DNA from: Bacilli bacterium
GTDB lineage: Bacteria > Bacillota_I > Bacilli_A > ML615J-28 > CAG-698
Direction: 5' to 3'
DNA length: 64,000 bases
Assembly (NCBI GenBank): GCA_031553555.1
Contig: JAVBLL010000008.1
Coordinates: forward strand, 149,202-213,201
Made by a program: the position numbers and the translations under genes. The notes under the pieces are model-generated. The model saw only the letters and a list, made by a program, of their open reading frames with translations, was not told where the DNA came from and ran no database searches. Shown piece by piece: positions 9,513 through 51,250 of this stretch (position 1 is the stretch's first letter; each line of letters opens with the position of its first letter).

Positions 9513-9536
9513 ACTCCTTTCATATATTATATTGGG

Positions 9537-22990: not shown

Positions 22991-23548
22991 TTAGTAATGT
23001 TCATCATCTAAAACAGTTTTTTCATTAAATGATAGCCAAGTTAAACGACTAGTTAAAACCCATAAAAGAAATATATAAATTACGGACATTACTAATGATG
23101 TACCAATTTTTATAAAAATCATTAGAAATGTTTGAGTACTCGCATATCCCATTAGCTTAGAATCCAAAAAAATCACTAAAGAATTAATAAGAGTAACAAA
23201 TATAGAAGTTGAAATAACTACTATACCTATATTAATTAAAGTATTTTTAGATTTTAATAACTTATATATAAATCCACTAAGTGCTCCCCATATAATTGGA
23301 GCTAGCATCCAGAGAGGGGTTGTTGGCCCTAATCCATACTCACTTATAATTTGCATTACAAAGCCCGATACTAACCCAGTTAAAAGTCCAAGTGTTGGAC
23401 CATACATAATTCCTACAAACATTAATGGCAAGGCATATAATGTTATTTTAATATCATTTCCAATTTTGATACTAATAAAATCCAGAGCAATCGCCAGAGC
23501 AGCCATATTTGCACACAAACAAATTTTCAAAACTAAATTTTTCTTCAT
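22991..23548 (-). CDS. folT: ECF-transporter substrate-specific S component, probable folate/THF-family (FolT-like)
   Basis: 185 aa, 5-6 TM helices, typical S-component size. Preceded by a THF-riboswitch-like leader. Confidence 0.6.
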   Translation of the reverse strand: MKKNLVLKICLCANMAALAIALDFISIKIGNDIKITLYALPLMFVGIMYGPTLGLLTGLVSGFVMQIISEYGLGPTTPLWMLAPIIWGALSGFIYKLLKSKNTLINIGIVVISTSIFVTLINSLVIFLDSKLMGYASTQTFLMIFIKIGTSLVMSVIYIFLLWVLTSRLTWLSFNEKTVLDDEHY

Positions 23549-33865: not shown

Positions 33866-33892
33866 TTAGCACTCTATGCGTTCATTTGCTAA
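33866..33892 (-). promoter_or_regulatory. Second, half-degenerate CIRCE-like element (TTAGCACTC-N9-ATTTGCTAA) at the hrcA transcription start / leader
   Basis: The left arm matches the CIRCE consensus exactly. The right arm is ATTTGCTAA versus consensus GAGTGCTAA. Confidence 0.4.
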
Positions 33893-33893
33893 T

Positions 33894-33922
33894 ATTATAT
33901 AATAATCTATTAGCACTGTCAA
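33894..33922 (-). promoter_or_regulatory. Sigma-A promoter of hrcA-grpE-dnaK-dnaJ operon (TTGACA-17-TATAAT)
   Basis: Minus-strand read: TTGACAGTGCTAATAGATTATTATATAAT. The -35 box sits inside the upstream CIRCE. Confidence 0.5.
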
Positions 33923-33936
33923 TAGTTTAGTGCTAA
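33910..33936 (-). promoter_or_regulatory. CIRCE operator (HrcA binding site)
   Basis: TTAGCACTG-tcaatagtt-TAGTGCTAA is a 9-bp inverted repeat with 9-nt spacer. It matches the consensus TTAGCACTC-N9-GAGTGCTAA at 16 of 18 positions. Confidence 0.75.
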
Positions 33937-34061: not shown

Positions 34062-34748
34062 TTAATAAGTTGATTTAAAGAAAACAAGCATTTTTTCAAT
34101 TTTAAATTCTTTATGTTCTTCAACATATATTTGATAATTAAGTTCTTGAATAAAATTAGAGGACACCTTATCATCATATGTACTAATTAACTTTGAAAGA
34201 CTTAAACATGAAAGTTGAAAGAAAATTGTCATTGTGCTCCCAGGTGCAAGACCATCATATGTGAAGAATGGCGTTTTAAAACTACCATCTGATTTTATCA
34301 GATTAGGCATATACTGTCCGCCTTCTACTTCTACTATATTATCCGGTTCTGAATCAAGACAATATCTAATATTTTCAAATGCGAATATTTTAATTAAAAC
34401 AAAGCCAGCCACATCACTAACGCCTAGTTCAACCTTAGATTTTACGCTACCTGTGTTTTTAACAACAAATTTATAGCTAAGTACTTTGCCAGAAACAACT
34501 AAAGCGTTATTAGTGACATCGCTTGATACATATTTATATATATCCTCCCCGTTTTCCTGGTCTAAAATACCATCTAGATTATTATCTAAGCCAACATACA
34601 AATCAGCTGTTCCAGAGACGTCACCGCTAACTACTACTACTTTTTGGGTTTCTTTGATTAAAGGCATCCATGCATACACAACCATAACAAACAAAAATAA
34701 AGTTGCGAAAAGACTGAAAATTGAAAATATTAATTGTTTTTTCGTCAT
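34062..34748 (-). CDS. Small TasA/camelysin-like secreted protein with SipW-cognate-type signal peptide (last gene of operon 1)
   Basis: 228 aa. N-terminus KKQLIFSIFSLFATLFLFVMVVYAWM has a hydrophobic core followed by a (T/V)YA(W/Y) motif, as in the TasA/CalY signals (GGGTFAYFSD). The mature part reads VSGTADLYVG… YKFVVKNTGSV, paralleling TasA ASGTLDL… FQFENNGSL. Confidence 0.45.
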   Translation of the reverse strand: MTKKQLIFSIFSLFATLFLFVMVVYAWMPLIKETQKVVVVSGDVSGTADLYVGLDNNLDGILDQENGEDIYKYVSSDVTNNALVVSGKVLSYKFVVKNTGSVKSKVELGVSDVAGFVLIKIFAFENIRYCLDSEPDNIVEVEGGQYMPNLIKSDGSFKTPFFTYDGLAPGSTMTIFFQLSCLSLSKLISTYDDKVSSNFIQELNYQIYVEEHKEFKIEKMLVFFKSTY

Positions 34749-34752
34749 ATTA

Positions 34753-37700
34753 TCAACTTCCTTTCTCTATCATTATTTGACGATAGGCAATTGTATTATC
34801 ACTTAATGACGTCACTTTTAAATAAACAGCGAAAGCATTGCCAACAGCGCTTGCTGTAATTGCAAAACTTTGAACATTACCAGTTGTATTTTGAGAATAA
34901 ACAAAGTCATCAGTAGTCAATAGAATTTCTATAGTATATTTTGGACTAACATCTTTTTGATTCATATTAATATCAAAATTACCTAAATTAATAATTCCAT
35001 CTGCAGGAATAATTTTATCATAACATAAAATAGCATTAACAGCTCTATGAACAGCCAATTCACTATTACCAACAACTATTAGAGCATTGTTTGTGTTATA
35101 TACAATGACTTTGCGTTCCAATAATTCAATGTAAGTCGCCTTATTCAAAGCGCCATTTGTTCCATAGGCATCAGCAATTGTAACATCATCTTTGCTACTA
35201 TCATAAAGTCCCTCAACAGTATTAGCAGCAACAATATTATTACCAACATAAGCATATTTTAAGTTCGACAATCCTAATAATGGACTAAAAATTGCGATTT
35301 TATTATTTTCTATATTTACCTCTACTAAAATAGGCATTTTTTCGATACCACTAATATCACTTAAATTAGTTTGATTATTTAAGCTTATCTTTTTGATTTT
35401 TCGATAAAAATACGAATTGCTACCATTTAATAAAGATGTAATACCATTATACGATAAATCTATTTCTTCCAATTCTATTAACTGTTGAAAAACTATCAAA
35501 TCAGAATCAATAAGCCCACAATTACTAGCATACATTTTAACAATTTTCAAACCTGAAAGGTTTGCCAACTTATTAGTTCCTGTTAATGGATTATTATTTA
35601 AATTAAGAATAGATAGTGATGTTAAGTATTGCATCCCGCTAAGATTTTTGATACTCAAATCACTAATATCAAAATTGTCAATCAAGATAACAGAATCACG
35701 AAAAACATAATTAAATAATTCATTATTATTTTGTAATCTTCCCCAAATAGTTTCGCTATAAATACCAGCTTTATATTGAAGGATTTTGGATTTTATGGCA
35801 TTATAAAGATTAGTATCTTTATATGGTTCACCATCACCCAAACGATAAATTCCAGGAATCGTAAAGTAATATTCTTGAACTACTTTCGCTTGATTAGGAA
35901 CAATAATATTTGCAGTTATACTAATAATAGTGTTAGTAGTTGGAATAAAGTTTTTGTTAATAATTATTTGAACCATATTTTCTGTTTGAATAATTGAACA
36001 AAAACTCAAACCTTTGCTATCATCTGCAAATTCCAATTCCACTTCTATTTCATTTAATTTACGTTCAAATTCAAAACCAGTTATAGTATACGCATTATTT
36101 GTAAATACACTTTGCAAAATTTGTTGCATATTGACCAGTTCATCATCACCACCACTACCACCTTTGGCAGGTATTGTAATGTTATATAAATGTTCTGTAA
36201 CCGTATTATTATTCCATTTAACCGTAACTTTTAAATCTAATTTTTGTTTTTCAGTAATTTGAAAGTTTAAAAAACTGGAAACTTTAACACGATCAGCAGT
36301 TGGATCAGTAAAATCAAAAATTAAACGATTGTAAAACTGCTCTGATAACGTTTGATCTGCAATAAATTCATCAGTATCTTCATTTAAATTATAAGCTACG
36401 ATATCGTATTCTACACTAGCGATTCCAAATAATAATTTCAAGTCAGTAGTAAATAAATCATAAAAATCTTTTTCAACAAAATATACTGGACCAAAAGCCG
36501 AATTTAATTGTTTTTCTTTTTCAGCTTGGGTGCATCCTTCAATTGTAATTGTTAAAACTTTAGTTGCAGTATTAGTAGTATCTTTCTTTGAATAAGTTAC
36601 TTTTATATCAATATTAGTATCAATAATAGCCGACCTAATCAAATTCATTATATTAGTATTAGAATCGTAAACAACTAATTTATTACTGCTCAATTCATAA
36701 TTTAATGTCATATCTTCATCAAACATACTGACTGCAGGAAGCATTATTCCCGCAGGAAATGATCCTCTGTCCATAATGCTATAAATAATTCGGTTGATTT
36801 CACGAATAGTTTGGTTAAATATACAATCATCCGTATTTCCCACTATGACTAAATTATAATCCATACTAGCATTTTCAAATGCTGAAACAGGTGTGTCATT
36901 ATACTTCAATGAAACCGTTAAGACAACATCTCTATCAGTAGACCCCCTAGTAATATGACCATTTGCTTGTAAATAATCAATATTAGAGGAACTATAATTA
37001 TATGTAATTGGATAATTGAAAAATGTTTTTGGTAAAACGATGTCATCCATAATAGCATATTTAGTTGTATTATTTTCCACGAAATCATATAAAAACAAGC
37101 TTTTCAAATATATTTGTGCAGCCTCAGCCGCAAAAATAATTTTATCTTCACTAGCATTACTAAAAACATCAATAAAGTTTGATGAATTAGATATTAAATT
37201 CATATCACTAAAATTATAAAAACAATTTGGGGCGCTAATTTTTAAGATTTCATTATCATTATCAATTCCACCACCACTAAGAGCATTAATATAATATACT
37301 CCATAATAATGATGTTTTATGTTTACTGGAGCTGATAAAACTAATGTATTATCAAGCAAATCAATTGTTGATGGAAGGTTAATGACTAATTCATCAACTA
37401 TCTCTAAGTCATTCAATAAAATAAAATGTGGTATTCTAGTTTTTGTAGATGATTTATCATTTAAACTAAAACTATTTAAATGTTTACGAATATCAAATTC
37501 TTTATTAATATAACAATTTGTTGATTGCTCATCTTTGCTAGATTCTCTATATAAAACATAAACGCTTAAGTTAGCATCAGCAATTTCGTTATTAGTTGAA
37601 TTGATTATATTTAAATCAATAGTGACCTTATTCTCAATATTAGGTTTTAATTCACTTTCACTTTCATAAAATAAAACAGTTTTATTTTGAATCATCACCA

Positions 37701-38007
37701 TTGAATTATCTTCATATTCAATTTCCATTCCATTGACATTTGTTTTTAAAACAATATCATAATAAACTTTTACATCTCCTGTATTATATAAATCTATTGA
37801 ATAATTAATAGATGAGGAGGATGAAATTGTTGGTAAAGATATTAAATCATAATAATTATTTGAATCATTAATTGTTAATTTGTAATTCCCTGTACTAATA
37901 TTATACTTTTCGCTTATTGCCACTTGAACAAAGACATCCGCAGCATAAACGATAACAGCAGATAATACAATCGTTAGAAAAACCATTAAAACTTTTTTCA
38001 ATTTCAT
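34753..38007 (-). CDS. Giant secreted protein: TasA-type signal peptide + TasA-like N-domain + internalin-type leucine-rich repeats
   Basis: 1084 aa. N-terminus MKLKKVLMVFLTIVLSAVIVYAADVF, then INYSIDLYNTGDVKVYYDIVLKTN (TasA-like strand pattern). LRR block (LSILNLNNNPLTGTNKLANLSGLKIVKMYASNCGLIDSDL… LSYNGITSL… LSDISGIEKMPILVEVNIENNKIAIFSPLLGLSNLKYAYVGNN). No LPXTG. Confidence 0.55.
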   Translation of the reverse strand: MKLKKVLMVFLTIVLSAVIVYAADVFVQVAISEKYNISTGNYKLTINDSNNYYDLISLPTISSSSSINYSIDLYNTGDVKVYYDIVLKTNVNGMEIEYEDNSMVMIQNKTVLFYESESELKPNIENKVTIDLNIINSTNNEIADANLSVYVLYRESSKDEQSTNCYINKEFDIRKHLNSFSLNDKSSTKTRIPHFILLNDLEIVDELVINLPSTIDLLDNTLVLSAPVNIKHHYYGVYYINALSGGGIDNDNEILKISAPNCFYNFSDMNLISNSSNFIDVFSNASEDKIIFAAEAAQIYLKSLFLYDFVENNTTKYAIMDDIVLPKTFFNYPITYNYSSSNIDYLQANGHITRGSTDRDVVLTVSLKYNDTPVSAFENASMDYNLVIVGNTDDCIFNQTIREINRIIYSIMDRGSFPAGIMLPAVSMFDEDMTLNYELSSNKLVVYDSNTNIMNLIRSAIIDTNIDIKVTYSKKDTTNTATKVLTITIEGCTQAEKEKQLNSAFGPVYFVEKDFYDLFTTDLKLLFGIASVEYDIVAYNLNEDTDEFIADQTLSEQFYNRLIFDFTDPTADRVKVSSFLNFQITEKQKLDLKVTVKWNNNTVTEHLYNITIPAKGGSGGDDELVNMQQILQSVFTNNAYTITGFEFERKLNEIEVELEFADDSKGLSFCSIIQTENMVQIIINKNFIPTTNTIISITANIIVPNQAKVVQEYYFTIPGIYRLGDGEPYKDTNLYNAIKSKILQYKAGIYSETIWGRLQNNNELFNYVFRDSVILIDNFDISDLSIKNLSGMQYLTSLSILNLNNNPLTGTNKLANLSGLKIVKMYASNCGLIDSDLIVFQQLIELEEIDLSYNGITSLLNGSNSYFYRKIKKISLNNQTNLSDISGIEKMPILVEVNIENNKIAIFSPLLGLSNLKYAYVGNNIVAANTVEGLYDSSKDDVTIADAYGTNGALNKATYIELLERKVIVYNTNNALIVVGNSELAVHRAVNAILCYDKIIPADGIINLGNFDINMNQKDVSPKYTIEILLTTDDFVYSQNTTGNVQSFAITASAVGNAFAVYLKVTSLSDNTIAYRQIMIEKGS

Positions 38008-38018
38008 CTCTCCTTTCT

Positions 38019-41000
38019 CTATTTAATTTCTATAAATATAGTACGTTCCATACTAACTTCAGCATTTTCTGAATTTATGAAGTTCACACGAACAGCAATT
38101 TTCGCAAAAGGCGTTTCATCAGTAAATGGTATTATTTCCATAACATTATCCTCAATTTTAATATAGGATGATGTTTCCACTATATTATATTTTATAGCAT
38201 ATTCCTGACCGCTGTGGTTAATAGAACTATTCAAGTTAACTTTATAAACTCCATTAACAATAGAATCTTTATTAATTGTAATTATAAAGTTATCAGTATC
38301 AAAACTTGCTATGCCAGTATTTGAATCAGGCAATTCTATTTTACTTAAAATTTCAGCGGCAACAACCGATCCAGTGACACTAATAGTTGGTACAGTTATA
38401 GTTACAGTAGGACGATATAATTTAAACCAATAATATAGATAAGCATAATTTTGAGTATCCAATATATTATTTGTCTGAGCAGTATTTAAAGTAATTGATG
38501 TAATCTTAGAAAAATGCGTCAATAAAGTTATATCTGGCATTAGTCCAAAACAAGTGAAGGTTGTTAAAGAATCTTTTGAACCTTCTAAAGGACGAAGATC
38601 AATAACACCAATATGACCAATATTAATAGTACTTGAAATATACATTGAAAATGTTACTAACTTCATATTTTTAATTGGAGTTAAATCGACAGCCTGAGTA
38701 TTAATTAGCGTCAATGATGTCATATTCTTAAAAATTTCTAAGCCTTTAATACTAGTAATTGTATAACCACTATGAGTACCCGATGTTTCACCAGTATAAC
38801 TAAAAACTGTATACGCCAAAATTTCTACTTGTGATAAAATATATTTATTACTAACTTCACCAACATCTTCAATATCAGTAGTTCCTGTAATATTACTATT
38901 GCAAGTAGCTGTATTCATAAGAATAGCAATTAAGTTCATATCTTCAAACACATCTTCAGCCTTCTCATATGTATCAGTTGATGTTTCAATATAGTATTGG
39001 TCAAAAATATAAGATGTATCTTCTTCGTTTAATGTGTAACAAGTAGTATTACCTAAATCCTTACCAGTAGCATTACTATATACAACTTCATTATTGCATT
39101 TTACGGCAGTAATTTTTGGACTTATTATGAATGAAACTGCATCTAAAGTACCAATATTTAATATATATCTTTGATTAGTTGCATCAGCTGTTAAAGTAAC
39201 TCCAGCCTGAGCAGTAGTATAAGATAAATAAAATTCATAATTACCTAAAGTTATAACACTTGGCAGATAATAATCATTGTTTTGAGCGAATTTCTTATTA
39301 TAACTTATAGTATCAGCTGTAGTCATACCAAGCGTATATCGTAAAGCCGCCAAAAACTGAGCAGCACTAGCTGTAGTAGTAGCATTTGCACTATCATATA
39401 TCATATAACGATAAACCAAACTATCTAAATGTTCTTGATAATTATCAAAATATGTATTTACATAATAAAGCGTGCTCGCTGATGTATATCTTCGATAAGA
39501 AAGATTAGTTGTATAAGTATTAATTGATTTTGCGCCATTACTAGTACTAATATTAAACAACCCTTTTGTTAAACTAAGCATCTGTGGAATATAGTTATTA
39601 TCAAGTTTTGGATAATATATATAATTATTATACTGAAAATTAACCAACTTTGTAAGTCCAGCAATGTATTCCATTGAACTCTTATTTGATGAATCCTTAT
39701 CCTTAGCAAGATCAATTGAATTAGTATTTGTCAGATTTAAAGTAGTTAAGTTAGCATAATATTTTATATTAACCAAACTTTTTAATTGTTGACATCCTGT
39801 TAAGCTTAATGTTGTAATAACAGATTGATTGCTTGCATTAAGATATGGAATAGGGATTTCTGTTATCCTTTGACTTTGCAAAGTAACACTAGTAATTTTT
39901 TTGAAATATTCAATTCCCTTTAAATTAGTCCAGCCATTATTATGTTGCGCTGTGACACCAAAGACAGTTCCTGCAGTAATCGATGTTATACCATCGCAAT
40001 TAGCTATTGTAAAAGTATTATTCGCAGGATTTGGTGTATTTGCCAATAAACGTCCTAATAAATAGTTACTGAATGCCTCATCAGGGAAAGCCGTTCTATT
40101 TGATAAGGATATAACTTGAACTGTTGGGCTGCCATCGGCCTGATATTGAATAAAATATTCATCAGTAGTTGAAGCAGCATTAGTTTTGCTAAAATTTAAA
40201 GTAATATACAATGCTACATCAAAGCCATTATAGAAATTAATACTTGCATTAGTTTTAATAATACCTGTAACAGTAGAGAAATAACTTGTAGTACCATAAA
40301 CTGTGCCTGCCGGAAACATTAAATAATCATAATAAGTGATATTCAATAAAGTATTGCTATCAGAATATAAAGTAAAATAATTAGTTTCATTACCATTAGT
40401 TCCTCTGACATTGACAATATATTCAGTTTTTGGTGTTAATTTTTCTAAATCATAAACTGGATACCCTTCTACTAATGCAGCATAGCCATATCCTGAATTC
40501 AAAGTTTTTATTCCATTAACTAAAGTATAATACTCATAAGTATAACGATATTTATTACTAACATATTGAATTTGATAGATATCTTCAAAAGTATTAATTA
40601 TATAATCAAGTTTAGTTAATAAATTTTCACCTGCAGTTGCAGTTCCACCGTTTGTTGATAAAGCAAAATTCAAGCTAGTCGAACTCATGCCCTTTTCAGT
40701 AACTAATATATCAACTAAATCTCTCATAATATAAATACCTGTAATTGAGGCGGATATATTAGTAAAACCTAAATTTAATGTATTTAGCAATACTATACTA
40801 TTATCATTACAATCATTTTTCAAAGCAATTAAAGAATCTATGTCAATACCATAATTGTAACTTAAATTAAGTGAAGTTAACGTATTAAGACAATTTTTAA
40901 AGACTGTTGTTAAATCACTTTGACTAGTATCAATAATTGTGTCTATGGCATTTTGAGATAAATTAACAGTAACTAAATTTATCAATTTTTTTATTGATGA

Positions 41001-44000
41001 TATATCAGAAATACTATTATTATAAATAGTCAACGTAGTTATTTGAGGCATTTTTTCAAGTGGCGTAATATCAGCAATAAAATTACTATACAGTGATACG
41101 CTGGTAGCACTAGTAAACATTTGAATACCCGAAATATCAGTTAATCCTTTTGTATTTAATGATATTGATGCAATACTACCTATACCCGTAGAAGCTTTCG
41201 AAGCCTCAACATCAGTATAACTATATGAACCAAAGATATTACCTACTGAATTATAAGTGACGTTGGCAAGAACGTTATACATTAATGTCTTCTCTTTAAT
41301 ATTAGCAATTGTATAATAGTCATAAGCATATAAATTAGCATTCACAGTATAATTGCCAGTTACAACGGCATTACCAAAGGTAACTGTATTATCAATACTA
41401 ACCGTTTTTATAATATACTTGTTCATAGCTGTTAAAGTAGGCACTTTTTGAAAATATGTATTATTAGTCTCGTTTTCTGTATATGCAAGCGAACCGCCAT
41501 GAATAAACATATATCTAAACTTAAGAACATTAGTACTACTTAAAGCATAATCAAGTTCCAAATTATACCCAATAACCGCAACAATAGATATTGCAATATC
41601 AATCAATGGAGTAGCAGTAATATCTACTACATAGTACTCTTCGTCATTGATTTCAACAACTCCCATATTTGATAAATCAAACAAAGCAACGTAAGTATCA
41701 TCCTCAACAAAAATAGATTGTTGAGTAGTTCTATTTCCAGCATTGGCAGCTGAAGATTCATAGAAATATTGAATTTCATATTTAACATTTTTATCATTTA
41801 CATAACTACTATCAGCATCACTAGATGTAGCCGTTCTCATAGCATAAACATATTTTGGCAAGTAAACTTTATCTCCTGCCTTCAACATATGTTGCTGAGT
41901 AATACTGCCATCAGCTTTTTGATATACTAAACTGTCATATGCAATATAATTATTTGAGCCATTCTTTTTAATGAACGGTTCAATTCCCGTAATAGCATTT
42001 TTCAAAGTCAACCATGATTCTTGACGAATAACTAAAAGTTCCTCATCATCATCATCAATTTCATCAGTTTGTTTTGTATTTGCATCATAAAATCTAAAAT
42101 CAAGTTCACGATCAGGAAAGGTTTTTCTAATATTATTATATAAAGATATGAATCTATCGATATTTGATTGGTAAGTTAAAGCTACCGTATTACCATATAA
42201 ATATAAAGTGTTTAGGTTAATGTTAGGTTTTTCTCCTTCTTCTAATCCGTTAAACTTTTCGTTAAAAGCTGATAAGAAAGACATTATATAAATATTACAT
42301 GTTGTAACTTGCAGTTTTTCTAATTTAGAAAAACTACTAATACTATTTTCAACAGAAATATATTTACAAGCATCAAAAATCATTATTTTTAATTGGTTAT
42401 TTAATGAGTCTAAACATGCTGTTGACATAGTTGTATATTTAATTGTTAATGATGTAATTTTAGACCCAGTATAGGCCATATACAATTCAACATCATCATA
42501 TGCAAGATTTGTCATTCTAAGTAAAGTCACTGTTGTAAGATTAGTTAATAATTCTAACCCTTTTATTGGCGACAAATGCATGCCATCTTCGCCCATTACA
42601 TCAGTTCCACCTTCTACACTAACAGATGTAATATATTGTAAACTATTACTATCAACAAATAAATATCCAGTATCATCATCAGTTTGAATAGTACAATTAT
42701 CAATAATTTGATAACGTAAGCTTCTATTTGGGAAAGCTTCATTTAATGGAATAAAACTACCATCATCCGCCTTATACATTAACTCATCATTATATTCTAA
42801 ACGAACTTCAATATAATATGTGAATGTTAAATCATATGATTTGGCATTTGTATTAGCCATAGAAATATAAAAAGACGTAGTATATGGAAAACATTTTGTC
42901 AAAGTAATACTGGCATCAGTTCCACCAACATTCAAGAAACTACTAACATCAATTGTATTATACAATGAACTATACGCACAAACTATTGGAACCAATATAT
43001 ACGTATCGTATGCTTCCACTCTCAATTGATTATTAGCAGCAATAACATATTTTTGGTTAAGTTTACTCAAACAAATAATTGATGGTAAATTAAGTAACGT
43101 TCTTTGAAGTGGAATTAACCATGGATTCCATATAACGGTATTACTATCTTTATATATTTTAATACCTTCATTATTAGTGTAAACCATGAACAATCCAGTC
43201 AATACTTTTTCATCCATCAAGCCAAAGGAACCATATACATAAAATGTTTCCAAATTTTCAAGTGATGCTAATATTGAATAATCAAAACGAGCATTATTAA
43301 CGTATAAATTTTTCAAATAAACTAGTGCATTAATTTCATTAAAAGCATTATTAGGATTATCTAAATTATTATTTCTGACATCCAAATTTTGAATACAATT
43401 TACAAAATAATTTAATCCCGTCAAATCCATAATACCTCTACTGTTTAAATCAAGAGAAATCAGATTAGTTGGATTTAAATCATCTTGTGACAATACATAT
43501 TTACCAGGAATAGTAGTTCCATTTATTATGAAATCACCATCATTATCAGTATTAAATGTATTAAATAAGATATTTCTTAAAATTGTATCAGGAATAGCTT
43601 TCTCTAAAGAAATAAATTCACCATCAGGAGTTTCAATAAAATAAGCAGGATCTTCAAGCGCTTTAACACTAACTTTAATCAATCTATTAATAGTACTTGT
43701 TCCTGATGCAAAACCAGTAACTGTAGCATATAAAAAGATGTCAGTTTCACCAATTTGATTGTAAATATGATATTCACGATTAATGATTTTTAAAATCAAT
43801 TCATCACTACTAGTCCAGGCAATACCATATGTGGTAGTCTCCGTGGCATCTTTATATTTATATTCAGTAATTAAATTCATAACGTCATATATTGAGGAAA
43901 TTTCTTTAATGCCAGACAATATTTTTGCGGCAATCAATTCATCAGAACTTGGAATATATTTCGTAGATGTGCTTTGGATATATATGCTAATGCTATCATT

Positions 44001-46673
44001 ATTATTGTATAACAAAGCATAGTAATATCGATTACTAGGGGATAAAATAAATGTATCCGATGTTGAACGAACAATATATAATGTTGTCAAAGAAGTCATA
44101 TATTCAAGTGGAGAATAATCCTGAATTAGATTAGATGATAAATATAATGTTTTTATACCTGTCAAATATTTTATTGGTTCAAATGAATATATAATATTGG
44201 ATGTTAAATTCAAAGTTTCTAAATTATCCAAATTCGCTAATGGAGAAACATCGGCAATTTGATTAGTCGATAAATTTAAAGTTGTCAATTGATACATTGT
44301 ACTAAGCGGTGTTAAATCAACGATTGCATTAGTTGACAAATTTATATTGACACAACCAGTTAAAAATTCAATTCCTTTTATGTTTTTAATAGCTTGACTA
44401 TTGATATTTATAGCTGTTGTTTTTGTAACACCAAGTTCATGAACTGTTAGCCAACCATCTTTATCTGTATCAAAATTATTAATAATATATAAATATAATT
44501 TTTCATCAGGAATATCATCAATATCATTATGAATTAAGCCAGTAATCTTAAAATTAATTTCAAAACGTTCATCGTTAACATAACAAACAAAATATACTTC
44601 AGTAATTTTATTTGGTAAATTAGGTTTTTTGAAAACAACCATCATTTTTCCATCAATTTCTTGAATAGAAAAATAATCTTTATAAATTGCTGGAACGGCA
44701 TCATCAAGATATTTAATTTGATATTTATTGTCAATTGATGAAGCAATTTCAAAATCCTTATATACATCTTCTTTCGGAATATATTGGTTTAATGCGTTAA
44801 ATACATTAAGTTTTTCTACAGTTTGAGCATAGCCAATAACTATAATTTCATTTTTAACAACATAAGTTCCATGTTCATAAACAAAAGTAATGGTTACTGG
44901 CATACTAACACTTGCCTGATTAACCGGTTTATTTAACAAAACAATTTGATTATTAACCATACCAATAAACTTTATAGAACTATCAAATATATCTGTATTA
45001 TTAGTATAATCAATATTATAACTGACACTTAACAATTGTGTCTTTTCTAATAAACTTGTGTTATTAATGTTATTACCTAGAACATCATACTTATCCCCTT
45101 CTTTATCTAATATAATTGTATCGTAAATATTTGGATTGATTAATTCAGTGCAATAAATCGCATTTAAAATATTAACTTTAACAATCTTTTCAGCATATGA
45201 AGTCATACCATTTTGTTCAACCATAACACGTATAGTTACATTTTCATAACCATAATGATCAAATATCTCATAGCCATTACGAAGATAAACACCATTACCA
45301 TCAATTAAATTCAAATTATCAGTTAACCAAGTGTAATAGGCATTGTAAGCAGGGTCATATACCTTTAAAAATAAAGAACTATCAATCGTATCTGGAATAT
45401 TGTTAATGGCATTATCTGCTAAAGACTGAGCCCCAGTGCCAAGCACAACCACAAAGCGATTATTTATTGATTCAGATTTGTTATTAGTTGCACTACTATC
45501 AGTACAAACAATTGTAAAATCAATTTCTTTTAAATTTGTATAAGGAGTCTGATTGATTTTAAAGTTATAGACATTATCAACAGTAATATACTTTTTCATT
45601 TCGGTTGATAAATTATAAACTACTAACTCTTTAACAATATAATATTCAATATTTTTAGAAATATCTAATTTCGTTGATAAATTCTTCTTTTCTTCAATAC
45701 TAATCAATTCTTTAATATAATCAATCATAGCATCATAATCATAGTTAGTAATTTCAATCAAACTAGAATCCGCAAACAATTTATCAATTTCCATAAAACC
45801 ATTTTCTACGCTAATCTTTACTTTTCCTTTTTCGGCAGCCGTGTCGACTAATACATCGGCAGATGAAGTTTTTCCAGAAAATCTAGACAAGGAATCATAG
45901 AATTTGGCTTTTAATGGCGTACTAGTATCACCATAATCAAAAATTATATCATGACCGTTTAAATCAATTTTTTTATTATTAAAATCAAGAGAAATTTTTT
46001 GTTTAATTTCCAAATCAGCGTCTAAAGTAACATTTGATAATAATCTCAAAACGGGCGTAGTAAAAGTCACTGGCGTTTCATTTAAACTTTTGATTGTTGA
46101 TTTTAATGACGCTAAACTTGTTATATAGTAAATACCATATTGAGAAATCAAGTCTTCTTCTAATATCATTGTGGCTATGACATCAATTTGCAATGTAAAC
46201 TCTTGCCCTTGATAATACTCTCCAGCACCAGCTGAATATACGAACTTGAAATAATATATATCATATTCACTACCACTCAAGATATTATTATAATCATTTT
46301 CATAATCTGCAATATCACTTAACATGCAAACAAACTGGTATTCTCCATCTTGTTTTAAATGCAATTCAATTGCTCTTGGCAATTCATCATTTTCAGAAAT
46401 ATTAAAAACCATTTCATAAAGATACGCAGTAATACCCACATTTGCTACCTTTACTTGAAATTCATAATAATCTCCCGGTTTCTCTAAACGAACATTTTTT
46501 GAATTAATGTGATTTACATCTACATTATCATTAACGCTTAAGACAATAGTTTCAACTTTTATTACTTGCTCATTACCTTCTTTTACATAAAGAAAATAGG
46601 CATATGTCAATGTAGAAAAAATTAAAATCATCATAAATGAAATAAATAAAAAGAATAAACTTCTATTTTTCAT
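38019..46673 (-). CDS. Giant (2884 aa) secreted protein: TasA-type signal peptide, TasA-like N-domain, multiple LRR arrays and beta-rich repeats
   Basis: N-terminus MKNRSLFFLFISFMMILIFSTLTYAYFLYVKEGNEQ. VRLEKPGDYYEFQVKVANVGITAYLYEMVFNIS matches the TasA LSNLKPGDKLTKDFQFENNGSLAIKEVLMALN pattern. At least three LRR arrays (e.g. LTPLSTMYQLTTLNLSTNQIADVSPLANLDNLETLNLTSNIIYSFEPIKYLTGIKTLYLSSNLIQDYSPL; ADITPLEKMPQITTLTIYNNSISDISSIKKLINLVTVNLSQNAI). No LPXTG or other cell-wall anchor. Confidence 0.55.
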   Translation of the reverse strand: MKNRSLFFLFISFMMILIFSTLTYAYFLYVKEGNEQVIKVETIVLSVNDNVDVNHINSKNVRLEKPGDYYEFQVKVANVGITAYLYEMVFNISENDELPRAIELHLKQDGEYQFVCMLSDIADYENDYNNILSGSEYDIYYFKFVYSAGAGEYYQGQEFTLQIDVIATMILEEDLISQYGIYYITSLASLKSTIKSLNETPVTFTTPVLRLLSNVTLDADLEIKQKISLDFNNKKIDLNGHDIIFDYGDTSTPLKAKFYDSLSRFSGKTSSADVLVDTAAEKGKVKISVENGFMEIDKLFADSSLIEITNYDYDAMIDYIKELISIEEKKNLSTKLDISKNIEYYIVKELVVYNLSTEMKKYITVDNVYNFKINQTPYTNLKEIDFTIVCTDSSATNNKSESINNRFVVVLGTGAQSLADNAINNIPDTIDSSLFLKVYDPAYNAYYTWLTDNLNLIDGNGVYLRNGYEIFDHYGYENVTIRVMVEQNGMTSYAEKIVKVNILNAIYCTELINPNIYDTIILDKEGDKYDVLGNNINNTSLLEKTQLLSVSYNIDYTNNTDIFDSSIKFIGMVNNQIVLLNKPVNQASVSMPVTITFVYEHGTYVVKNEIIVIGYAQTVEKLNVFNALNQYIPKEDVYKDFEIASSIDNKYQIKYLDDAVPAIYKDYFSIQEIDGKMMVVFKKPNLPNKITEVYFVCYVNDERFEINFKITGLIHNDIDDIPDEKLYLYIINNFDTDKDGWLTVHELGVTKTTAININSQAIKNIKGIEFLTGCVNINLSTNAIVDLTPLSTMYQLTTLNLSTNQIADVSPLANLDNLETLNLTSNIIYSFEPIKYLTGIKTLYLSSNLIQDYSPLEYMTSLTTLYIVRSTSDTFILSPSNRYYYALLYNNNDSISIYIQSTSTKYIPSSDELIAAKILSGIKEISSIYDVMNLITEYKYKDATETTTYGIAWTSSDELILKIINREYHIYNQIGETDIFLYATVTGFASGTSTINRLIKVSVKALEDPAYFIETPDGEFISLEKAIPDTILRNILFNTFNTDNDGDFIINGTTIPGKYVLSQDDLNPTNLISLDLNSRGIMDLTGLNYFVNCIQNLDVRNNNLDNPNNAFNEINALVYLKNLYVNNARFDYSILASLENLETFYVYGSFGLMDEKVLTGLFMVYTNNEGIKIYKDSNTVIWNPWLIPLQRTLLNLPSIICLSKLNQKYVIAANNQLRVEAYDTYILVPIVCAYSSLYNTIDVSSFLNVGGTDASITLTKCFPYTTSFYISMANTNAKSYDLTFTYYIEVRLEYNDELMYKADDGSFIPLNEAFPNRSLRYQIIDNCTIQTDDDTGYLFVDSNSLQYITSVSVEGGTDVMGEDGMHLSPIKGLELLTNLTTVTLLRMTNLAYDDVELYMAYTGSKITSLTIKYTTMSTACLDSLNNQLKIMIFDACKYISVENSISSFSKLEKLQVTTCNIYIMSFLSAFNEKFNGLEEGEKPNINLNTLYLYGNTVALTYQSNIDRFISLYNNIRKTFPDRELDFRFYDANTKQTDEIDDDDEELLVIRQESWLTLKNAITGIEPFIKKNGSNNYIAYDSLVYQKADGSITQQHMLKAGDKVYLPKYVYAMRTATSSDADSSYVNDKNVKYEIQYFYESSAANAGNRTTQQSIFVEDDTYVALFDLSNMGVVEINDEEYYVVDITATPLIDIAISIVAVIGYNLELDYALSSTNVLKFRYMFIHGGSLAYTENETNNTYFQKVPTLTAMNKYIIKTVSIDNTVTFGNAVVTGNYTVNANLYAYDYYTIANIKEKTLMYNVLANVTYNSVGNIFGSYSYTDVEASKASTGIGSIASISLNTKGLTDISGIQMFTSATSVSLYSNFIADITPLEKMPQITTLTIYNNSISDISSIKKLINLVTVNLSQNAIDTIIDTSQSDLTTVFKNCLNTLTSLNLSYNYGIDIDSLIALKNDCNDNSIVLLNTLNLGFTNISASITGIYIMRDLVDILVTEKGMSSTSLNFALSTNGGTATAGENLLTKLDYIINTFEDIYQIQYVSNKYRYTYEYYTLVNGIKTLNSGYGYAALVEGYPVYDLEKLTPKTEYIVNVRGTNGNETNYFTLYSDSNTLLNITYYDYLMFPAGTVYGTTSYFSTVTGIIKTNASINFYNGFDVALYITLNFSKTNAASTTDEYFIQYQADGSPTVQVISLSNRTAFPDEAFSNYLLGRLLANTPNPANNTFTIANCDGITSITAGTVFGVTAQHNNGWTNLKGIEYFKKITSVTLQSQRITEIPIPYLNASNQSVITTLSLTGCQQLKSLVNIKYYANLTTLNLTNTNSIDLAKDKDSSNKSSMEYIAGLTKLVNFQYNNYIYYPKLDNNYIPQMLSLTKGLFNISTSNGAKSINTYTTNLSYRRYTSASTLYYVNTYFDNYQEHLDSLVYRYMIYDSANATTTASAAQFLAALRYTLGMTTADTISYNKKFAQNNDYYLPSVITLGNYEFYLSYTTAQAGVTLTADATNQRYILNIGTLDAVSFIISPKITAVKCNNEVVYSNATGKDLGNTTCYTLNEEDTSYIFDQYYIETSTDTYEKAEDVFEDMNLIAILMNTATCNSNITGTTDIEDVGEVSNKYILSQVEILAYTVFSYTGETSGTHSGYTITSIKGLEIFKNMTSLTLINTQAVDLTPIKNMKLVTFSMYISSTINIGHIGVIDLRPLEGSKDSLTTFTCFGLMPDITLLTHFSKITSITLNTAQTNNILDTQNYAYLYYWFKLYRPTVTITVPTISVTGSVVAAEILSKIELPDSNTGIASFDTDNFIITINKDSIVNGVYKVNLNSSINHSGQEYAIKYNIVETSSYIKIEDNVMEIIPFTDETPFAKIAVRVNFINSENAEVSMERTIFIEIK

Positions 46674-46691: not shown

Positions 46692-47393
46692 TTAATTTGC
46701 AAATATTTTAATAGATTTTATAGTCAAAGATTGAAATTGATAACGATTATCTCCATCATCAAAATCTAAATTTTCTTTTGAAACAAACATAATGCTGAAA
46801 ACTAATTCATGTGTACTGCCAGATGGCAAAACCAAATCACTTAAAAACGCTTCATTAAGTTCATAGTATTCTTCAACTTCACTTTCAACATCATCAATTT
46901 TACTACTGATCACATGAATCTCCATTGTTTCTTCAATTGGATACTCAGGAACATAATTACCATCATCATCTATGTAATAATATCCTGGAATGTATTGGAT
47001 GCCATCAAACCTATTTACGTACAAATAATCATCTTCTATTCCGTCATATACCATATTAGAGTAATATTCAGTCAAACTCATTTTCAATTTATATGCCATA
47101 TCGCTTTTTGAGGTAGTGATTAATTTAAATAAATATTCTTGCTCTGGAACAATATATTGTAGTTTAATATCTTTTGTAACTGCTGACCAGTCATTTATAT
47201 CATTATCCCATGAATATAGTGCGCACTGTATACTTTTCTTTTCTAAATCTTCCGTATCAATAGGAATACCATTTATTTTTGCTTTTTCATATATCGTTAT
47301 CCAAGCAAATGTCAACATTAAAAACATCAATAACGCAAAAACAACTGAAAATATTGATAAAATAAATTTTTGATTAATTTTCTTTTTAGTCAT
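46692..47393 (-). CDS. Membrane-anchored/secreted protein with SipW-cognate-like N-terminus (first gene of operon 1), function unknown
   Basis: Start MTKKKINQKFILSIFSVVFALLMFLMLTFAWITIY (the 5' extension in the ORF track overlaps the leader RNA). GGAGGG RBS. Acidic, Tyr-rich soluble part. Confidence 0.4.
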   Translation of the reverse strand: MTKKKINQKFILSIFSVVFALLMFLMLTFAWITIYEKAKINGIPIDTEDLEKKSIQCALYSWDNDINDWSAVTKDIKLQYIVPEQEYLFKLITTSKSDMAYKLKMSLTEYYSNMVYDGIEDDYLYVNRFDGIQYIPGYYYIDDDGNYVPEYPIEETMEIHVISSKIDDVESEVEEYYELNEAFLSDLVLPSGSTHELVFSIMFVSKENLDFDDGDNRYQFQSLTIKSIKIFAN

Positions 47394-47404: not shown

Positions 47405-47498
47405 AAAAAAAATGCCAGTACACATAATTCCTATGCAACTGGCTATCTATTTCAGACCCTTTAGTTTTGCGTCATCGCCTTTCGACGATTTTGCCTCT
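47405..47498 (-). ncRNA. c-di-GMP-I (GEMM)-like riboswitch element, copy 1, with intrinsic terminator abutting the RBS
   Basis: Minus-strand RNA: AGAGGCAAAAUCGUCGAAAGGCGAUGACGCAAAACUAAAGGGUCUGAAAUAGAUAGCCAGUUGCAUAGGAAUUAUGUGUACUGGCAUUUUUUUU. GGCAAA–hairpin with GAAA tetraloop–GACGCAAA(G/A)C core as in the Vc2 GEMM aptamer (GGCAAACCAUUCGAAAGAGUGGGACGCAAAGCC), and a UAG(A/G)UAGC 3' segment. The terminator hairpin GCCAGU…ACUGGC plus U8 lies directly before the GGAGGG RBS. Confidence 0.5.
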
Positions 47499-47522
47499 AT
47501 TTTAATATTCACTTTTATTAAT

Positions 47523-47613
47523 AAAAAAAGCCAGCACACATAATTATATGCAACTGGCTATCTATTTCAGACCCTTTAGTTTTGCGTCATCGCCTTTCGA
47601 CGATTTTGCCTTT
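47523..47613 (-). ncRNA. c-di-GMP-I (GEMM)-like riboswitch element, copy 2 (tandem, upstream of copy 1)
   Basis: Identical to copy 1 over the ~60 nt of the aptamer core; ~95% identical over the whole element. Differences are confined to the terminator loop and closing pair (A→G giving G·U). Confidence 0.5.
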
Positions 47614-47639
47614 ATTCTAATATTCATTTTATTACTATT

Positions 47640-47668
47640 ATTATATCACCTTTTACAAAAAATGTCAA
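47640..47668 (-). promoter_or_regulatory. Sigma-A promoter of operon 1 (TTGACA-17-TATAAT)
   Basis: Minus-strand read CTTGACATTTTTTGTAAAAGGTGATATAATAATAG, ~25 nt upstream of riboswitch copy 2. Homologous to the operon-2 promoter. Confidence 0.4.
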
Positions 47669-47771: not shown

Positions 47772-48590
47772 TCAAATATTAGGATTAAATAGTACATTAA
47801 TTTTTTTAATCTCCATCATTTGATATTTAAAATGATTGCTATCAAAAGTTTTATTACCATCACCGTCATAACCACTAACTATAGGATCAAAAAATACATC
47901 AAAAAAAACAATTAAATGTGATTGCTGTGTACTTACTTCATCAATCTTTATTCCTGATATTAAGTTATAACTATTTTTTATATTTGGACTAATATTCTCA
48001 TCAGCAAAAGGAGTATCAACAGCAAAATCAATTAAATACTCTGTTTTATTTAAGCCATTAACGTCTATAATATCAATCTCATTATCACCATTTATATAAA
48101 TAGCTCTAGTCAACATATATTTAAACGCATATCTAATATCATTTCGTGAATCCCCAATTTCTCTATCAATAACATTGTTAATATTTGTTAAATTAATAAC
48201 TATTGATCCTTTACTTTTTTCAAAATTTTCAATACCAATAGCAAATGAAAATCTATCTCCTGGAGCGGCTTGAACTTGAGAGGTTCCAAAATCAAATAAA
48301 TTTGTAACAGCAGGATTCGTTATTAATTCATATACTTGATCATTTTTATTTATATCCGCTTCATCATAAATATTATTTATTAAAGATATTTCGGAATCAA
48401 TGGCGCCAATTCTGGCGCTATCATGATAAACATATAAATCAAGTTTTAAATTAAACCCATTAACCTCATTAATGATAGAAATCTCAGCAGTATCAAGCAA
48501 AGTAAACCAAGCATAAACAACAAAAACAACAGCAAATGAAGCTAATACAAGAGAAATAATTGAACCAATAAATTTTTTTCTAATATTCAT
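47772..48590 (-). CDS. TasA/camelysin-like secreted protein with SipW-cognate-type signal peptide (last gene of operon 2)
   Basis: 272 aa. MNIRKKFIGSIISLVLASFAVVFVVYAWFTLLDTAE… FNLKLDL… AAPGDRFSFAIGIENFEKSKGSIVINLTNI parallels TasA AAFND…GTLDL…LKPGDKLTKDFQFENNGSLAIKEVLMALN. Confidence 0.5.
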   Translation of the reverse strand: MNIRKKFIGSIISLVLASFAVVFVVYAWFTLLDTAEISIINEVNGFNLKLDLYVYHDSARIGAIDSEISLINNIYDEADINKNDQVYELITNPAVTNLFDFGTSQVQAAPGDRFSFAIGIENFEKSKGSIVINLTNINNVIDREIGDSRNDIRYAFKYMLTRAIYINGDNEIDIIDVNGLNKTEYLIDFAVDTPFADENISPNIKNSYNLISGIKIDEVSTQQSHLIVFFDVFFDPIVSGYDGDGNKTFDSNHFKYQMMEIKKINVLFNPNI

Positions 48591-48598
48591 TATATCAC

Positions 48599-51250
48599 CT
48601 AATCCAAAATAAGTAGTCTTGTTATATAAACACTTGAGTCGCTCTTATTATAAATTCTTAATATTACTGCATGCGGTCTTCCAGTTGTACTTACAGCGGT
48701 CATTTCTGTTATAGTATATCCATATGTAGTACTAAAAGGAGTTGCATTCAAAAATGGTGTCAAAGTATTTGTAGCATTTGCATAACTATTATTTCTACGA
48801 TAGATTATTCCACTTAAAGTTTGTTGCAAAACTAATTGAGCTGCAGTATAACTAAAAGTTGTAGTGTTCGTAATATATATTAAAACACCTTTTTTAGCAA
48901 GAAAAATGAATGAATATTTATTATATAAACCATTCGTCCCATAATTAGTATCACTAGTATAATTATTATAAACTTTTATCTCCGTCAAATTTGAAAATTC
49001 TTCTAAAGAATAGAATAATTCTATATTGTTATTAGAAATATCCAATTTCTTGATTTTTGATAAACTACTAAGATATGATAAATGTAGTGTTGTTAAGCTA
49101 TTACCAGATAAGTTAAGACCTTCCAAGGAAACAAGACTATTGATAATAGCAAAATTCCTTGTAATATATGTAGCATTGGTGAAATTTTGATCAGATAAAT
49201 CTAAATATTTAGTATTATCTAAATATTGTAAACCCTCAAAATTCGCAATTCCTGTATATCCACTTAAAGAAAATATTTCTCTATTAACTGCTAATTGATT
49301 TCTAAGTAAGATTCCATCTGTTATATCGCCATATGCTTTTAATAGTGCATTATATAAATTATTATCAATAACATCTACACCATTATGGATAAAGCCTTGA
49401 ACAAGAACTCTAGAATATGGAAAATCAGATACTTCTTCATAATCATCTCTTGTATTTAATTTGAAAGAAAAGATTATTTCAATATATAAATCAGTAAGCG
49501 GCACTTTATCCCAATCAAAGGTAAAGTCAAAATGTCCATCTTCACTATTATAAGTAATAGTTAAGAAATTCAAGGCACCAGTATATTTATTATTTTGATC
49601 TATCCAAGCTACCAAACGATAACGAAATTTACAATTTAAATATTCACTAGGCATTTCAAAATCATGATGAGTATCTAAACCAGTTTTTTCTATAAGTAAA
49701 GAATTCAAATAACGATAATAGTCAATATATAAATCATTTGGACCAATATCATCAGTAGGAGCCCCGATATCACCAAATGGGTCATAGGCAATACCAACTC
49801 TTCTCACCACTGTAAGTGGTATTCCATCACTAAACTTAAATTCCATAGACAAAAATATTTGATTAATAACAGATGGGGGATTACTCTTATCTACTGTTAA
49901 GATAGTATATGTCTTTCCATCTAATGCCACTTCTTTAATAATATATGATCCATATGAATCGCCAATAATTGAATAGGAAATTTTGTCTAATTGATAACCT
50001 GTAAAATCTGATGCTGATGGCAAAATAAAGATGTTTTCTAAACTAATGTCACCACTTGTTCCTGTCATTGTTTTAATATTATTAAAATAAATATTTTGGT
50101 CGCCATCCTTTACAACATACAAATATCCATCTTCTATGAAGGTTGCTATTAATTCATCTGCTCTTTCAAAGTTTGAAGTAGCAAGGATTTTTTTAAATGT
50201 CACTGTGAGAGAAATACTTCCACTTGCATTAATGATTTTTACTAGAACTATTTTTTCTAATGATAATGTATTATAATCTAAAATATAGTTCTCCACATCA
50301 GATGATGAGTATGTATAAGTTAAATTACCATAACTATAATTTTTAATTAACTGAATGTCCGATTTTATTTCATAATATTGTAATGTCTTATTCCAAAATT
50401 CAGAAATAGTTTCATAGAATATATTCTTACCAATTGTCAGCCAATAACTATGATCTTTATTCAAAATATTAAACGCATATTCTTCAGAATAGACATTATT
50501 ATTTTGGAAAGTAAGTTCTAATGTTAAAACCACTTCCTCAATACCGTTACTAGCAACTATCCCACTAACATTAACAGCACCATATGAACTCAAAACATTT
50601 TCCTTATTGGATGTATATTTAAATTCAACTGGGTAATTGTAATAATTAAAAACCAAAGGAATATCATCGTGATAATAATTCTTTGATAAATCAGCATAAA
50701 CTACTTCTTCAATATATTTAAATATCTTAGTCGATAATAAATCCGAATCAAATGACTGATATGTAACAATAATATTTGTTTTAATTAACTCATTATCAAT
50801 TTGAATAAACGCATTAGGCGTATTAATCATAATATTACTACTATTTGCTGCAGAATTTTTGATGGAGCCATTAGTAATCCATAAAATTGTTTGATAATAA
50901 TTTTCAAATGTTATACTATGACCATTTAAATCCAAACTATAACTATTTAAATTAATATTAATATCACTAGTAATAATTAAGTCTTTTGTTAATTGGATAT
51001 TATTATTTAATTTCACTACTTTTCTATCTTTTAGCTGGCTAATTAGTTTTGAGTCATTCCACTTGCTTGCACTAGCTACTAATCTTAAATCTTTTTCATT
51101 ATTAATAGCAATAATTGTCTGGTCACCTGATGCACTTAATTCCATATTATAAAAATCTGTTATTGTTGAAAAATATGCATAAGTCATAATGCATGCAAAA
51201 GTAATCGTAATAATGATAGTACATATTAATAAAATGCTTTTTTTCATCAT
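48599..51250 (-). CDS. Large (883 aa) secreted protein with TasA-type signal peptide and C-terminal LRR array
   Basis: MMKKSILLICTIIITITFACIMTYAYFSTITDF. Beta-helix-like LDLNGHSITF segment. LRR block LQYLDNTKYLDLSDQNF… LEGLNLSGNSLTTLHLSYLSSLSKIKKLDISNNNIELFYSLEEFSNLTEIKVYNN. Start overlaps the upstream stop (ATGA coupling). Confidence 0.5.
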   Translation of the reverse strand: MMKKSILLICTIIITITFACIMTYAYFSTITDFYNMELSASGDQTIIAINNEKDLRLVASASKWNDSKLISQLKDRKVVKLNNNIQLTKDLIITSDININLNSYSLDLNGHSITFENYYQTILWITNGSIKNSAANSSNIMINTPNAFIQIDNELIKTNIIVTYQSFDSDLLSTKIFKYIEEVVYADLSKNYYHDDIPLVFNYYNYPVEFKYTSNKENVLSSYGAVNVSGIVASNGIEEVVLTLELTFQNNNVYSEEYAFNILNKDHSYWLTIGKNIFYETISEFWNKTLQYYEIKSDIQLIKNYSYGNLTYTYSSSDVENYILDYNTLSLEKIVLVKIINASGSISLTVTFKKILATSNFERADELIATFIEDGYLYVVKDGDQNIYFNNIKTMTGTSGDISLENIFILPSASDFTGYQLDKISYSIIGDSYGSYIIKEVALDGKTYTILTVDKSNPPSVINQIFLSMEFKFSDGIPLTVVRRVGIAYDPFGDIGAPTDDIGPNDLYIDYYRYLNSLLIEKTGLDTHHDFEMPSEYLNCKFRYRLVAWIDQNNKYTGALNFLTITYNSEDGHFDFTFDWDKVPLTDLYIEIIFSFKLNTRDDYEEVSDFPYSRVLVQGFIHNGVDVIDNNLYNALLKAYGDITDGILLRNQLAVNREIFSLSGYTGIANFEGLQYLDNTKYLDLSDQNFTNATYITRNFAIINSLVSLEGLNLSGNSLTTLHLSYLSSLSKIKKLDISNNNIELFYSLEEFSNLTEIKVYNNYTSDTNYGTNGLYNKYSFIFLAKKGVLIYITNTTTFSYTAAQLVLQQTLSGIIYRRNNSYANATNTLTPFLNATPFSTTYGYTITEMTAVSTTGRPHAVILRIYNKSDSSVYITRLLILD

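Follow-up and report, generated by a model that had tools for sequence, protein, structure and literature searches.

Three canonical c-di-GMP-I riboswitches, two of them in tandem, predicted to induce two operons that encode large secreted proteins of an uncultured bacterium

Background

On the minus strand of the 64-kb stretch of DNA analysed here (the window, always meant at its full length), two operons, A and B, begin behind copies of the same short leader RNA. A preliminary description, made by eye from the raw sequence, had assigned these leaders to the c-di-GMP-I (GEMM) riboswitches and placed them between promoters and the starts of operons of adhesin-like genes. If this is correct, the locus raises several questions: which ligand would the leaders sense, would binding switch the genes on or off, what would a pair of such elements do in front of a single operon, and what kind of proteins would come under their control? 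The coordinates on which our answers are based are collected in Table 1.

Table 1. Riboswitches, promoters and genes of operons A and B (Vc2 numbering for key nucleotides; energies are of the terminator hairpins)
Feature	Position	Strand	Description
Operon A promoter	54442-54470	(-)	TTGACT-17-TATAAT with TG, 11/12 consensus
sw3 aptamer (riboswitch 3)	54352-54426	(-)	RF01051, 57.0 bits, E 1.6e-08
sw3 key nucleotides	G20=54416, A47=54389, C92=54356	(-)	GUAA tetraloop
sw3 platform	54323-54364	(-)	terminator hairpin 54364-54331, -17.5 kcal/mol; U8 54330-54323
A1	51247-54258	(-)	1003 aa, weak LRR signal, N-terminal TM segment and TYGW motif
A2	48599-51250	(-)	883 aa, LRR-like signals, N-terminal TYAYFS motif
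A3	47772-48590	(-)	272 aa, B1 paralogue, last gene of operon A
Operon B promoter	47640-47668	(-)	TTGACA-17-TATAAT, extended -10 TG, 12/12 consensus
sw1 aptamer (riboswitch 1)	47546-47620	(-)	RF01051, 63.8 bits, E 3.7e-10
sw1 key nucleotides	G20=47610, C44=47586, A47=47583, G83=47558, C92=47550	(-)	GAAA tetraloop
sw1 platform	47523-47558	(-)	terminator hairpin 47558-47530, -13.0 kcal/mol; U7 47529-47523
sw2 aptamer (riboswitch 2)	47431-47505	(-)	RF01051, 61.5 bits, E 1.4e-09
sw2 key nucleotides	G20=47495, A47=47468, C92=47435	(-)	GAAA loop
sw2 platform	47405-47443	(-)	terminator hairpin 47443-47413, -14.2 kcal/mol; U8 47412-47405
B1	46692-47393	(-)	233 aa, first gene of operon B; no Pfam/NCBIfam family
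B2	38019-46673	(-)	2884 aa, giant LRR protein, N-terminal TM segment, TYAYF motif
B3	34753-38007	(-)	1084 aa, weak LRR signals (all Pfam matches sub-cutoff), N-terminal signal-like segment
B4	34062-34748	(-)	228 aa, B1 paralogue, last gene of operon B

The leaders and their class

A repeat search of the window returned an 84-nt family with three members, all on the minus strand (47432-47515, 47547-47630, 96% identical, and 54353-54436, 79%). An alignment of copies 1 and 2 shows no difference between GGCAAAA and GCCAGTTGCATA, and the variation is confined to the 5' flank and the terminator loop; sw1 and sw2 thus have the same aptamer core. The preliminary description had proposed a search with the Rfam models of the two c-di-GMP classes, and this search gives a clear result. 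At gathering thresholds, cmscan finds exactly three matches to RF01051 (c-di-GMP-I) in the window, all of them full-length on the model (1-87) and 22-29 bits above its gathering score of 35 bits (E-values are computed for the whole 64-kb window, both strands, and 4227 families), while the same whole-window scan against 4227 Rfam families contains no match to c-di-GMP-II (RF01786). The three minus-strand copies are therefore where the preliminary description had put them, as both the repeat search and the RF01051 matches confirm, although the Rfam aptamers begin 7-8 nt 5' of the starts that it had given.

The nucleotides that matter most for ligand binding are also in place. In Vc2 of Vibrio cholerae, the structural reference for this class, the ligand contacts are G20, A47 and C92, and C44-G83 is the interhelical pair (PMC4744006, PMC11218506). 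Equivalents of all five are present in each of the three window copies, and the spacing between G20 and A47 is always 27 nt, as in Vc2, Vc1 and Bc1. Vc2 and the window RNAs further have in common the GGCAAA and GACGCAAA junctions and a first hairpin capped by a GNRA loop, a feature that had rightly been recognised by eye. RNAalifold recovers both helices from nine related aptamers, with compensatory double changes in 7 of the 16 predicted pairs. In type 1 GEMM RNAs the second helix carries a tetraloop receptor, and the high affinity of Vc2 is due to the docking of the GNRA loop into it. The window aptamers differ from Vc2 on this very point, since their second helix is truncated, with only about 6 bp and a 5-nt loop, which makes the presence of a receptor uncertain. 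They also differ from it in showing no clear P1 (a closing P1 helix is not evident in the window copies, and some of the pairs assigned to P1 in the RF03167 alignment are non-canonical) and in carrying a terminator-type expression platform.

Judged by covariance model and by the canonical G20/A47/C92 set, the three leaders are thus canonical class I c-di-GMP riboswitches, that is, a well-known regulatory element and no new kind. The by-eye call was correct, and it confirms that a riboswitch class can be recognised from raw sequence in this way.

How widespread is the compact form? In a collection with one genome per species, a pattern search for this aptamer core matched only three unrelated MAGs, all with canonical RF01051 elements, and a tight pattern of the aptamer had no matches in metagenomes. 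A looser pattern for the compact aptamer retrieved at least 120 metagenome loci, many of them labelled human gut, upstream of genes of the kinds usual for GEMM, which code for signalling proteins, lipoproteins, prepilins and large surface proteins. Among 123 matched metagenome aptamers GNRA loops are nearly universal, position 20 is G in 99, A in 20 and C in 1, and two closely spaced matches occur in three loci. These matches indicate that neither the compact form nor the tandem habit is peculiar to the window; both are common.

Ligand specificity

The GEMM-I fold is shared by RNAs with other preferences, and one may ask whether the window RNAs are variants sensing either 3'3'-c-AMP-GMP (GEMM-Ib) or the ligand of the "GGC" class (c-di-GMP-I-GGC, RF03167), with which they have the fold and clan CL00126 in common. 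When Rfam is run in E-value mode, clan competition indeed retains RF03167, and not RF01051, at 47430-47619 and 54351-54425 (-). The scores (58.9, 57.7 and 55.3 bits) come close to the RF03167 gathering score of 59, but all three fall short of it, by 0.1-3.7 bits. Moreover, after GACGC the RF03167 consensus has G, whereas the window RNAs, like RF01051, have A. We have therefore rejected the GGC class, whose gathering score is unreached and whose defining G47 is replaced by A47 in all three copies, and we have likewise rejected the c-AMP-GMP class, whose defining A20 is absent, the three window copies all having G20. The combination of G20 and A47 in every copy excludes both forms, and a G at the position-20 contact goes with selectivity for c-di-GMP, an A with selectivity for c-AMP-GMP (PMC9481103). 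What speaks for a variant ligand, beyond the sub-threshold scores, comes from outside the window: A replaces G20 at the homologous loci L010, L011 and L013, as it does in the 20 metagenome aptamers mentioned above, and this suggests that the lineage explores altered specificity. For the window copies themselves, we find a ligand other than c-di-GMP improbable.

The sub-threshold report of RF03167 in E-value mode is, incidentally, a trap for automated annotation.

Promoters and expression platforms

The preliminary description had each copy lying between a promoter and the ribosome-binding site (RBS) of an operon, and ending in a hairpin with a U8 run. The general position, from promoter to operon start with a terminator-type platform, is borne out by our promoter scan and by the folds; the details have to be adjusted. 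A hairpin and a U-run follow every aptamer, but the run of sw1 is U7, those of the two others being U8. The promoter of operon A belongs to sw3 only, whereas sw1 and sw2 share that of operon B, which is the only strong promoter for the pair. Finally, the U-run of sw2 adjoins the RBS of B1 (GGAGGG, 47402-47397, followed by ATG at 47393-47391), but sw1 is not beside any RBS; in operon A the RBS (AGGAGG, 54269-54264) and the ATG (54258) come about 65 nt beyond the platform of sw3. The two promoter regions are homologous, which suggests that the whole promoter-switch unit was duplicated.

A promoter-like site inside sw1 (CTGAAA-16-TATAAT, 47570-47543 (-)) was considered as an internal promoter for sw2. 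It is a 10/12 match, its -10 box lies in the terminator loop of sw1, and it is absent from sw2; matches of this type occur in the window at the rate of shuffled controls (109 found, 97.7 expected), and we have treated it as due to chance.

The direction of the switch can be predicted from the way in which aptamer and terminator overlap. In all three copies the 5' arm of the terminator, GCCAGUU(G/A)C, is at the same time the 3' strand of the second aptamer helix together with C92 (in sw1 the arm is GCCAGUUGC, C92 included). Folded without constraints, every leader has the terminator as its structure of minimum energy (-27.0 to -29.3 kcal/mol). Imposing the aptamer raises the energy by 4.4-9.1 kcal/mol and does away with the GC-rich terminator base; these folds are thermodynamic and leave co-transcriptional kinetics aside. 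Since one strand serves both structures, aptamer and terminator would be mutually exclusive, and the predicted outcome is a c-di-GMP-induced ON switch, working by anti-termination, a direction that refines the preliminary description. In such a scheme the leader would, without ligand, fold into the intrinsic terminator and RNA polymerase would stop; with c-di-GMP bound, the shared strand would be locked in the aptamer, the terminator would be blocked, and transcription would go on. The same mutually exclusive design is that of the ON switches of pilM (PMC9262584) and Bc3-5 (PMC4759541).

One could still imagine that these are true c-di-GMP aptamers that work as OFF switches, or that act mainly on translation or RNA stability. 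Switches of both directions exist in this class (in C. difficile, Cd1 is OFF and the pilM switch is ON; PMC9262584), the direction proposed here is read entirely from predicted folds, and the RBS of B1 lies 2 nt past the terminator U-run. We nevertheless give this reading little credence: the identity of terminator arm and aptamer strand is found in the three window copies and again at L009, L010, L012 and L013, a separate anti-terminator element is not visible, and the induction of surface proteins by c-di-GMP fits known biology.

Our preferred reading, to which we would give a probability of roughly 0.85, is thus that three canonical c-di-GMP-I riboswitches (GEMM-I, RF01051) act on transcription termination as ON switches and control operons A and B. 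According to the fold predictions, a rise in c-di-GMP most likely turns on two operons of large secreted leucine-rich-repeat (LRR) proteins.

A tandem pair upstream of operon B

Operon A, with three genes, is preceded by one switch, and operon B, with four genes, by two. The latter, sw1 and sw2, stand 115 nt apart, and each has its own hairpin and U-run. The possession of a terminator by each aptamer makes the pair two complete switches in series, which corresponds to the category "multiple expression platforms", under which tandem c-di-GMP-I elements are listed (PMC9481103 Table 1). In terms of sequence architecture, sw1-sw2 is therefore a pseudo-cooperative tandem of complete riboswitches of one class. 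Read-through into operon B would then be the product of two independent decisions, and the response would be less leaky, steeper and more digital.

The proximity of two aptamers with identical cores in one 5' UTR could also bring to mind a single cooperative two-aptamer unit of the kind known from glycine riboswitches; the complete terminator hairpin and U-run of each aptamer, and the agreement of this layout with the published category (PMC9481103 Table 1), make such a unit very improbable here, and we retain the reading of two switches in series. A simple scan of the stretch from the end of operon A (47772) to the promoter of operon B revealed no terminator, so that transcripts of operon A may also have to pass the tandem pair.

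Arrangements of this sort are far from rare. Doublets (347) and triplets (12) of c-di-GMP-I make it the commonest same-class tandem known (PMC9481103), and its tandems are statistically enriched (PMC12452182). The closest parallel is Bc3-5 in the 5' UTR of cspABCDE of Bacillus thuringiensis CT-43 (Zhou et al. 2016, PMC4759541). This is a triple tandem, the window having a pair, but in both cases near-identical complete c-di-GMP-I switches follow each other in one 5' UTR upstream of genes for cell-surface proteins. In both, too, each terminator takes up the aptamer's 3' strand together with the equivalent of C92, an overlap from which an ON switch is predicted; in Bc3-5 the overlap comprises the C92 equivalent, P1 and part of P3, and a more stringent and more digital response of the tandem has been shown experimentally (PMC4759541). 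The window aptamers are more compact (75 nt, with the short second helix). The products differ as well, being LRR proteins and an unannotated family of small proteins, and the host is an uncultured bacterium with relatives labelled Bacilli or Acholeplasmataceae.

For sw3 the nearest counterpart is Bc2 of B. thuringiensis, a solitary c-di-GMP-I switch within the 5' UTR of the surface adhesin gene cap (collagen adhesion protein), and cap is reported to be strongly repressed in the parent strain owing to Bc2 (PMC4933901). Bc2 and sw3 differ in their host and in the family of the protein encoded downstream.

Both the riboswitch class and the tandem architecture are, in other words, already well documented (PMC9481103, PMC4759541). 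The gene context, too, is a documented one, and the locus leaves the picture of riboswitch mechanisms as it was. What we regard as noteworthy at this locus is the pairing with an unannotated family of secreted proteins, the A20 variants found at homologues, and the island character of the operons, to which we now turn.

The genes under predicted riboswitch control and their products

Judged from sequence, the two operons appear to encode seven secreted or membrane-anchored proteins, of which four are large LRR proteins and three are paralogues within an unannotated family of about 230 aa. The LRR signal exceeds the Pfam cutoff in B2 only (LRR_4, 50.4 bits, cutoff 27; a partial internalin-like LRR match of 89 bits lies far under the family cutoff of 1050 bits) and is sub-threshold in the other large proteins. 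All seven N-termini show a basic stretch, a hydrophobic segment and the motif (T/V)(Y/F)(A/G)(Y/W)(F/I), which is present as a variant in B3. This N-terminal motif is found in no other secreted protein of the window, where the only further match is an internal stretch of a YetF/DUF421 ORF (8865-9572). Neither the SipW-cognate signal model TIGR04088 nor any other NCBIfam model gives a convincing match on the seven N-termini, the weak ones being MAG1140 and Mfer763 only (E 0.0015 and 0.013).

The genes had previously been called "adhesin-like". The LRR domains and the N-terminal signal or anchor segments of the large proteins are in partial agreement with this, and a function in adhesion is plausible. 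Together the seven products would probably make up a surface or adhesion module induced by c-di-GMP. Such an annotation provides two operons of uncharacterised surface proteins in an uncultured bacterium with a signal, c-di-GMP, and with a predicted response, induction.

The B1 family and its riboswitches in other genomes

Among 5.8 billion clustered proteins none is closely related to B1, and six distant homologues came to light in an exhaustive HMMER search. A profile built from five external homologues only recovers B1 (1.6e-37), A3 (5.8e-16) and B4 (4.4e-07), which shows that the island contains three paralogues of one unannotated family. Its members measure about 230-270 aa; an N-terminal hydrophobic helix, which carries an F-A-W motif, precedes a beta-sandwich body, and the conserved C-terminal strand reads N-x-Y-Q-x-Q-x-L-x-I-K. 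The four external ones that were looked up are 21-25% identical to B1 in the family alignment and 26-33% over the matched stretches.

These four external homologues occupy five loci, and at each of them the gene comes immediately after an RF01051 match with the same overlap of aptamer and terminator (L009, with the aptamer truncated by the end of the contig; L010 and L011; L012; L013). The gene order at L012 resembles that of the window, small proteins being followed by a giant of 3527 aa, and three further members of the family (L087, L097 and L100) are found downstream of such aptamers in metagenome contigs. On these sequence comparisons, the association of riboswitch and gene is conserved in other organisms and metagenomes, and the link of an unannotated family of small proteins with a c-di-GMP regulon in several unrelated metagenomes is a usable clue to its function.

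The A20 aptamers before B1 homologues are those at L010 710-784, L011 612-686 and L013 221-296; they carry the signature that has been linked to c-AMP-GMP selectivity. At L012, a gene at 1881-2528 codes for a signal peptidase I of the archaeal/SipW type (TIGR02228, 63.1 bits, cutoff 51.85). It lies 3.5 kb upstream of the homologous operon with the riboswitch, and its presence there fits a SipW-type processing of the TYAYF/FAW N-termini. A SipW-type signal peptidase was not found within the 64-kb window.

It is tempting to go further and to see here a mobile, c-di-GMP-induced surface module built around the undescribed B1/A3/B4 family, whose members would be TasA-like, SipW-processed fibre or anchor subunits displaying the giant LRR proteins, and which would travel with GEMM-I riboswitches (both G20 and A20) among uncultured bacteria known from metagenomes. 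This is a speculation that we regard as rather unlikely, but if it were true, it would mean a new adhesion system controlled by cyclic dinucleotides in a lineage related to Mollicutes.

Genomic setting

Operons A and B make up a block of 20.4 kb (34062-54470) between a gene for an MBL-fold hydrolase and hrcA. The upstream flank consists of greA, a sigma factor gene, yqeH, yqeK-rsfS and the MBL-fold hydrolase gene, the downstream flank of hrcA-grpE-dnaK-dnaJ. Three DnaK relatives (88-90% identity) provide seven loci for comparison, and there the MBL gene directly precedes hrcA, except that at one locus a single amidase gene separates the two. The absence of the block at these loci argues for a lineage-specific insertion. 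The GC content of the island is that of its surroundings, without any shift, and the 20.4 kb contain no integrase. The host is placed through its DnaK alone. This protein is a singleton at 90% clustering, and its named relative, at 88% identity, bears the label "Bacilli bacterium" or "Acholeplasmataceae".

Might three near-identical copies in a lineage-specific island be nothing else than a dispersed repeat, or a relic decayed beyond regulatory function? There are only three of them in 64 kb, each between a near-consensus promoter and an operon start, all the functionally critical nucleotides are intact, and the order of aptamer, terminator and gene recurs at homologues that are 21-25% identical to B1, so that we regard this possibility as practically negligible and keep to the reading of functional riboswitches.

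Genes with GGDEF, EAL or HD-GYP domains were not found within the 64-kb window, which counts against our preferred reading. In its favour, Acholeplasma laidlawii encodes 14 GGDEF/EAL proteins (PMC2408644); our literature search found no report of a c-di-GMP riboswitch in Acholeplasma.

Other features of the window

The MBL-fold hydrolase gene (54526-55152 (-)), just upstream of sw3, is conserved in all relatives. Their proteins (e.g. L006 7550-8179) have a precomputed Pfam match to Anti-Pycsar_Apyc1 (PF23023), a family of cyclic-nucleotide phosphodiesterases; for the window protein Lactamase_B is the sole match at E<0.001. On the other side of the island, the start of hrcA carries two CIRCE-like inverted repeats (33866-33892 and 33910-33936, + coordinates; TTAGCACT-N9-AGTGCTAA) with 2-3 mismatches, where none are expected by chance; this is the usual operator of HrcA.

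The ORF at 11396-14332 (-) codes for a lipoprotein-like protein of 978 aa with a Big_2 domain, and contains six or seven tandem copies of a 183-nt (61-codon) repeat (12959-14177, 60-74% identity). Another riboswitch of the window belongs to the THF class (RF01831, 23583-23671 (-), 44.7 bits, gathering score 36), and lies directly upstream of a gene for an ECF-transporter S component (22991-23548 (-)), the usual context of a folate transporter.
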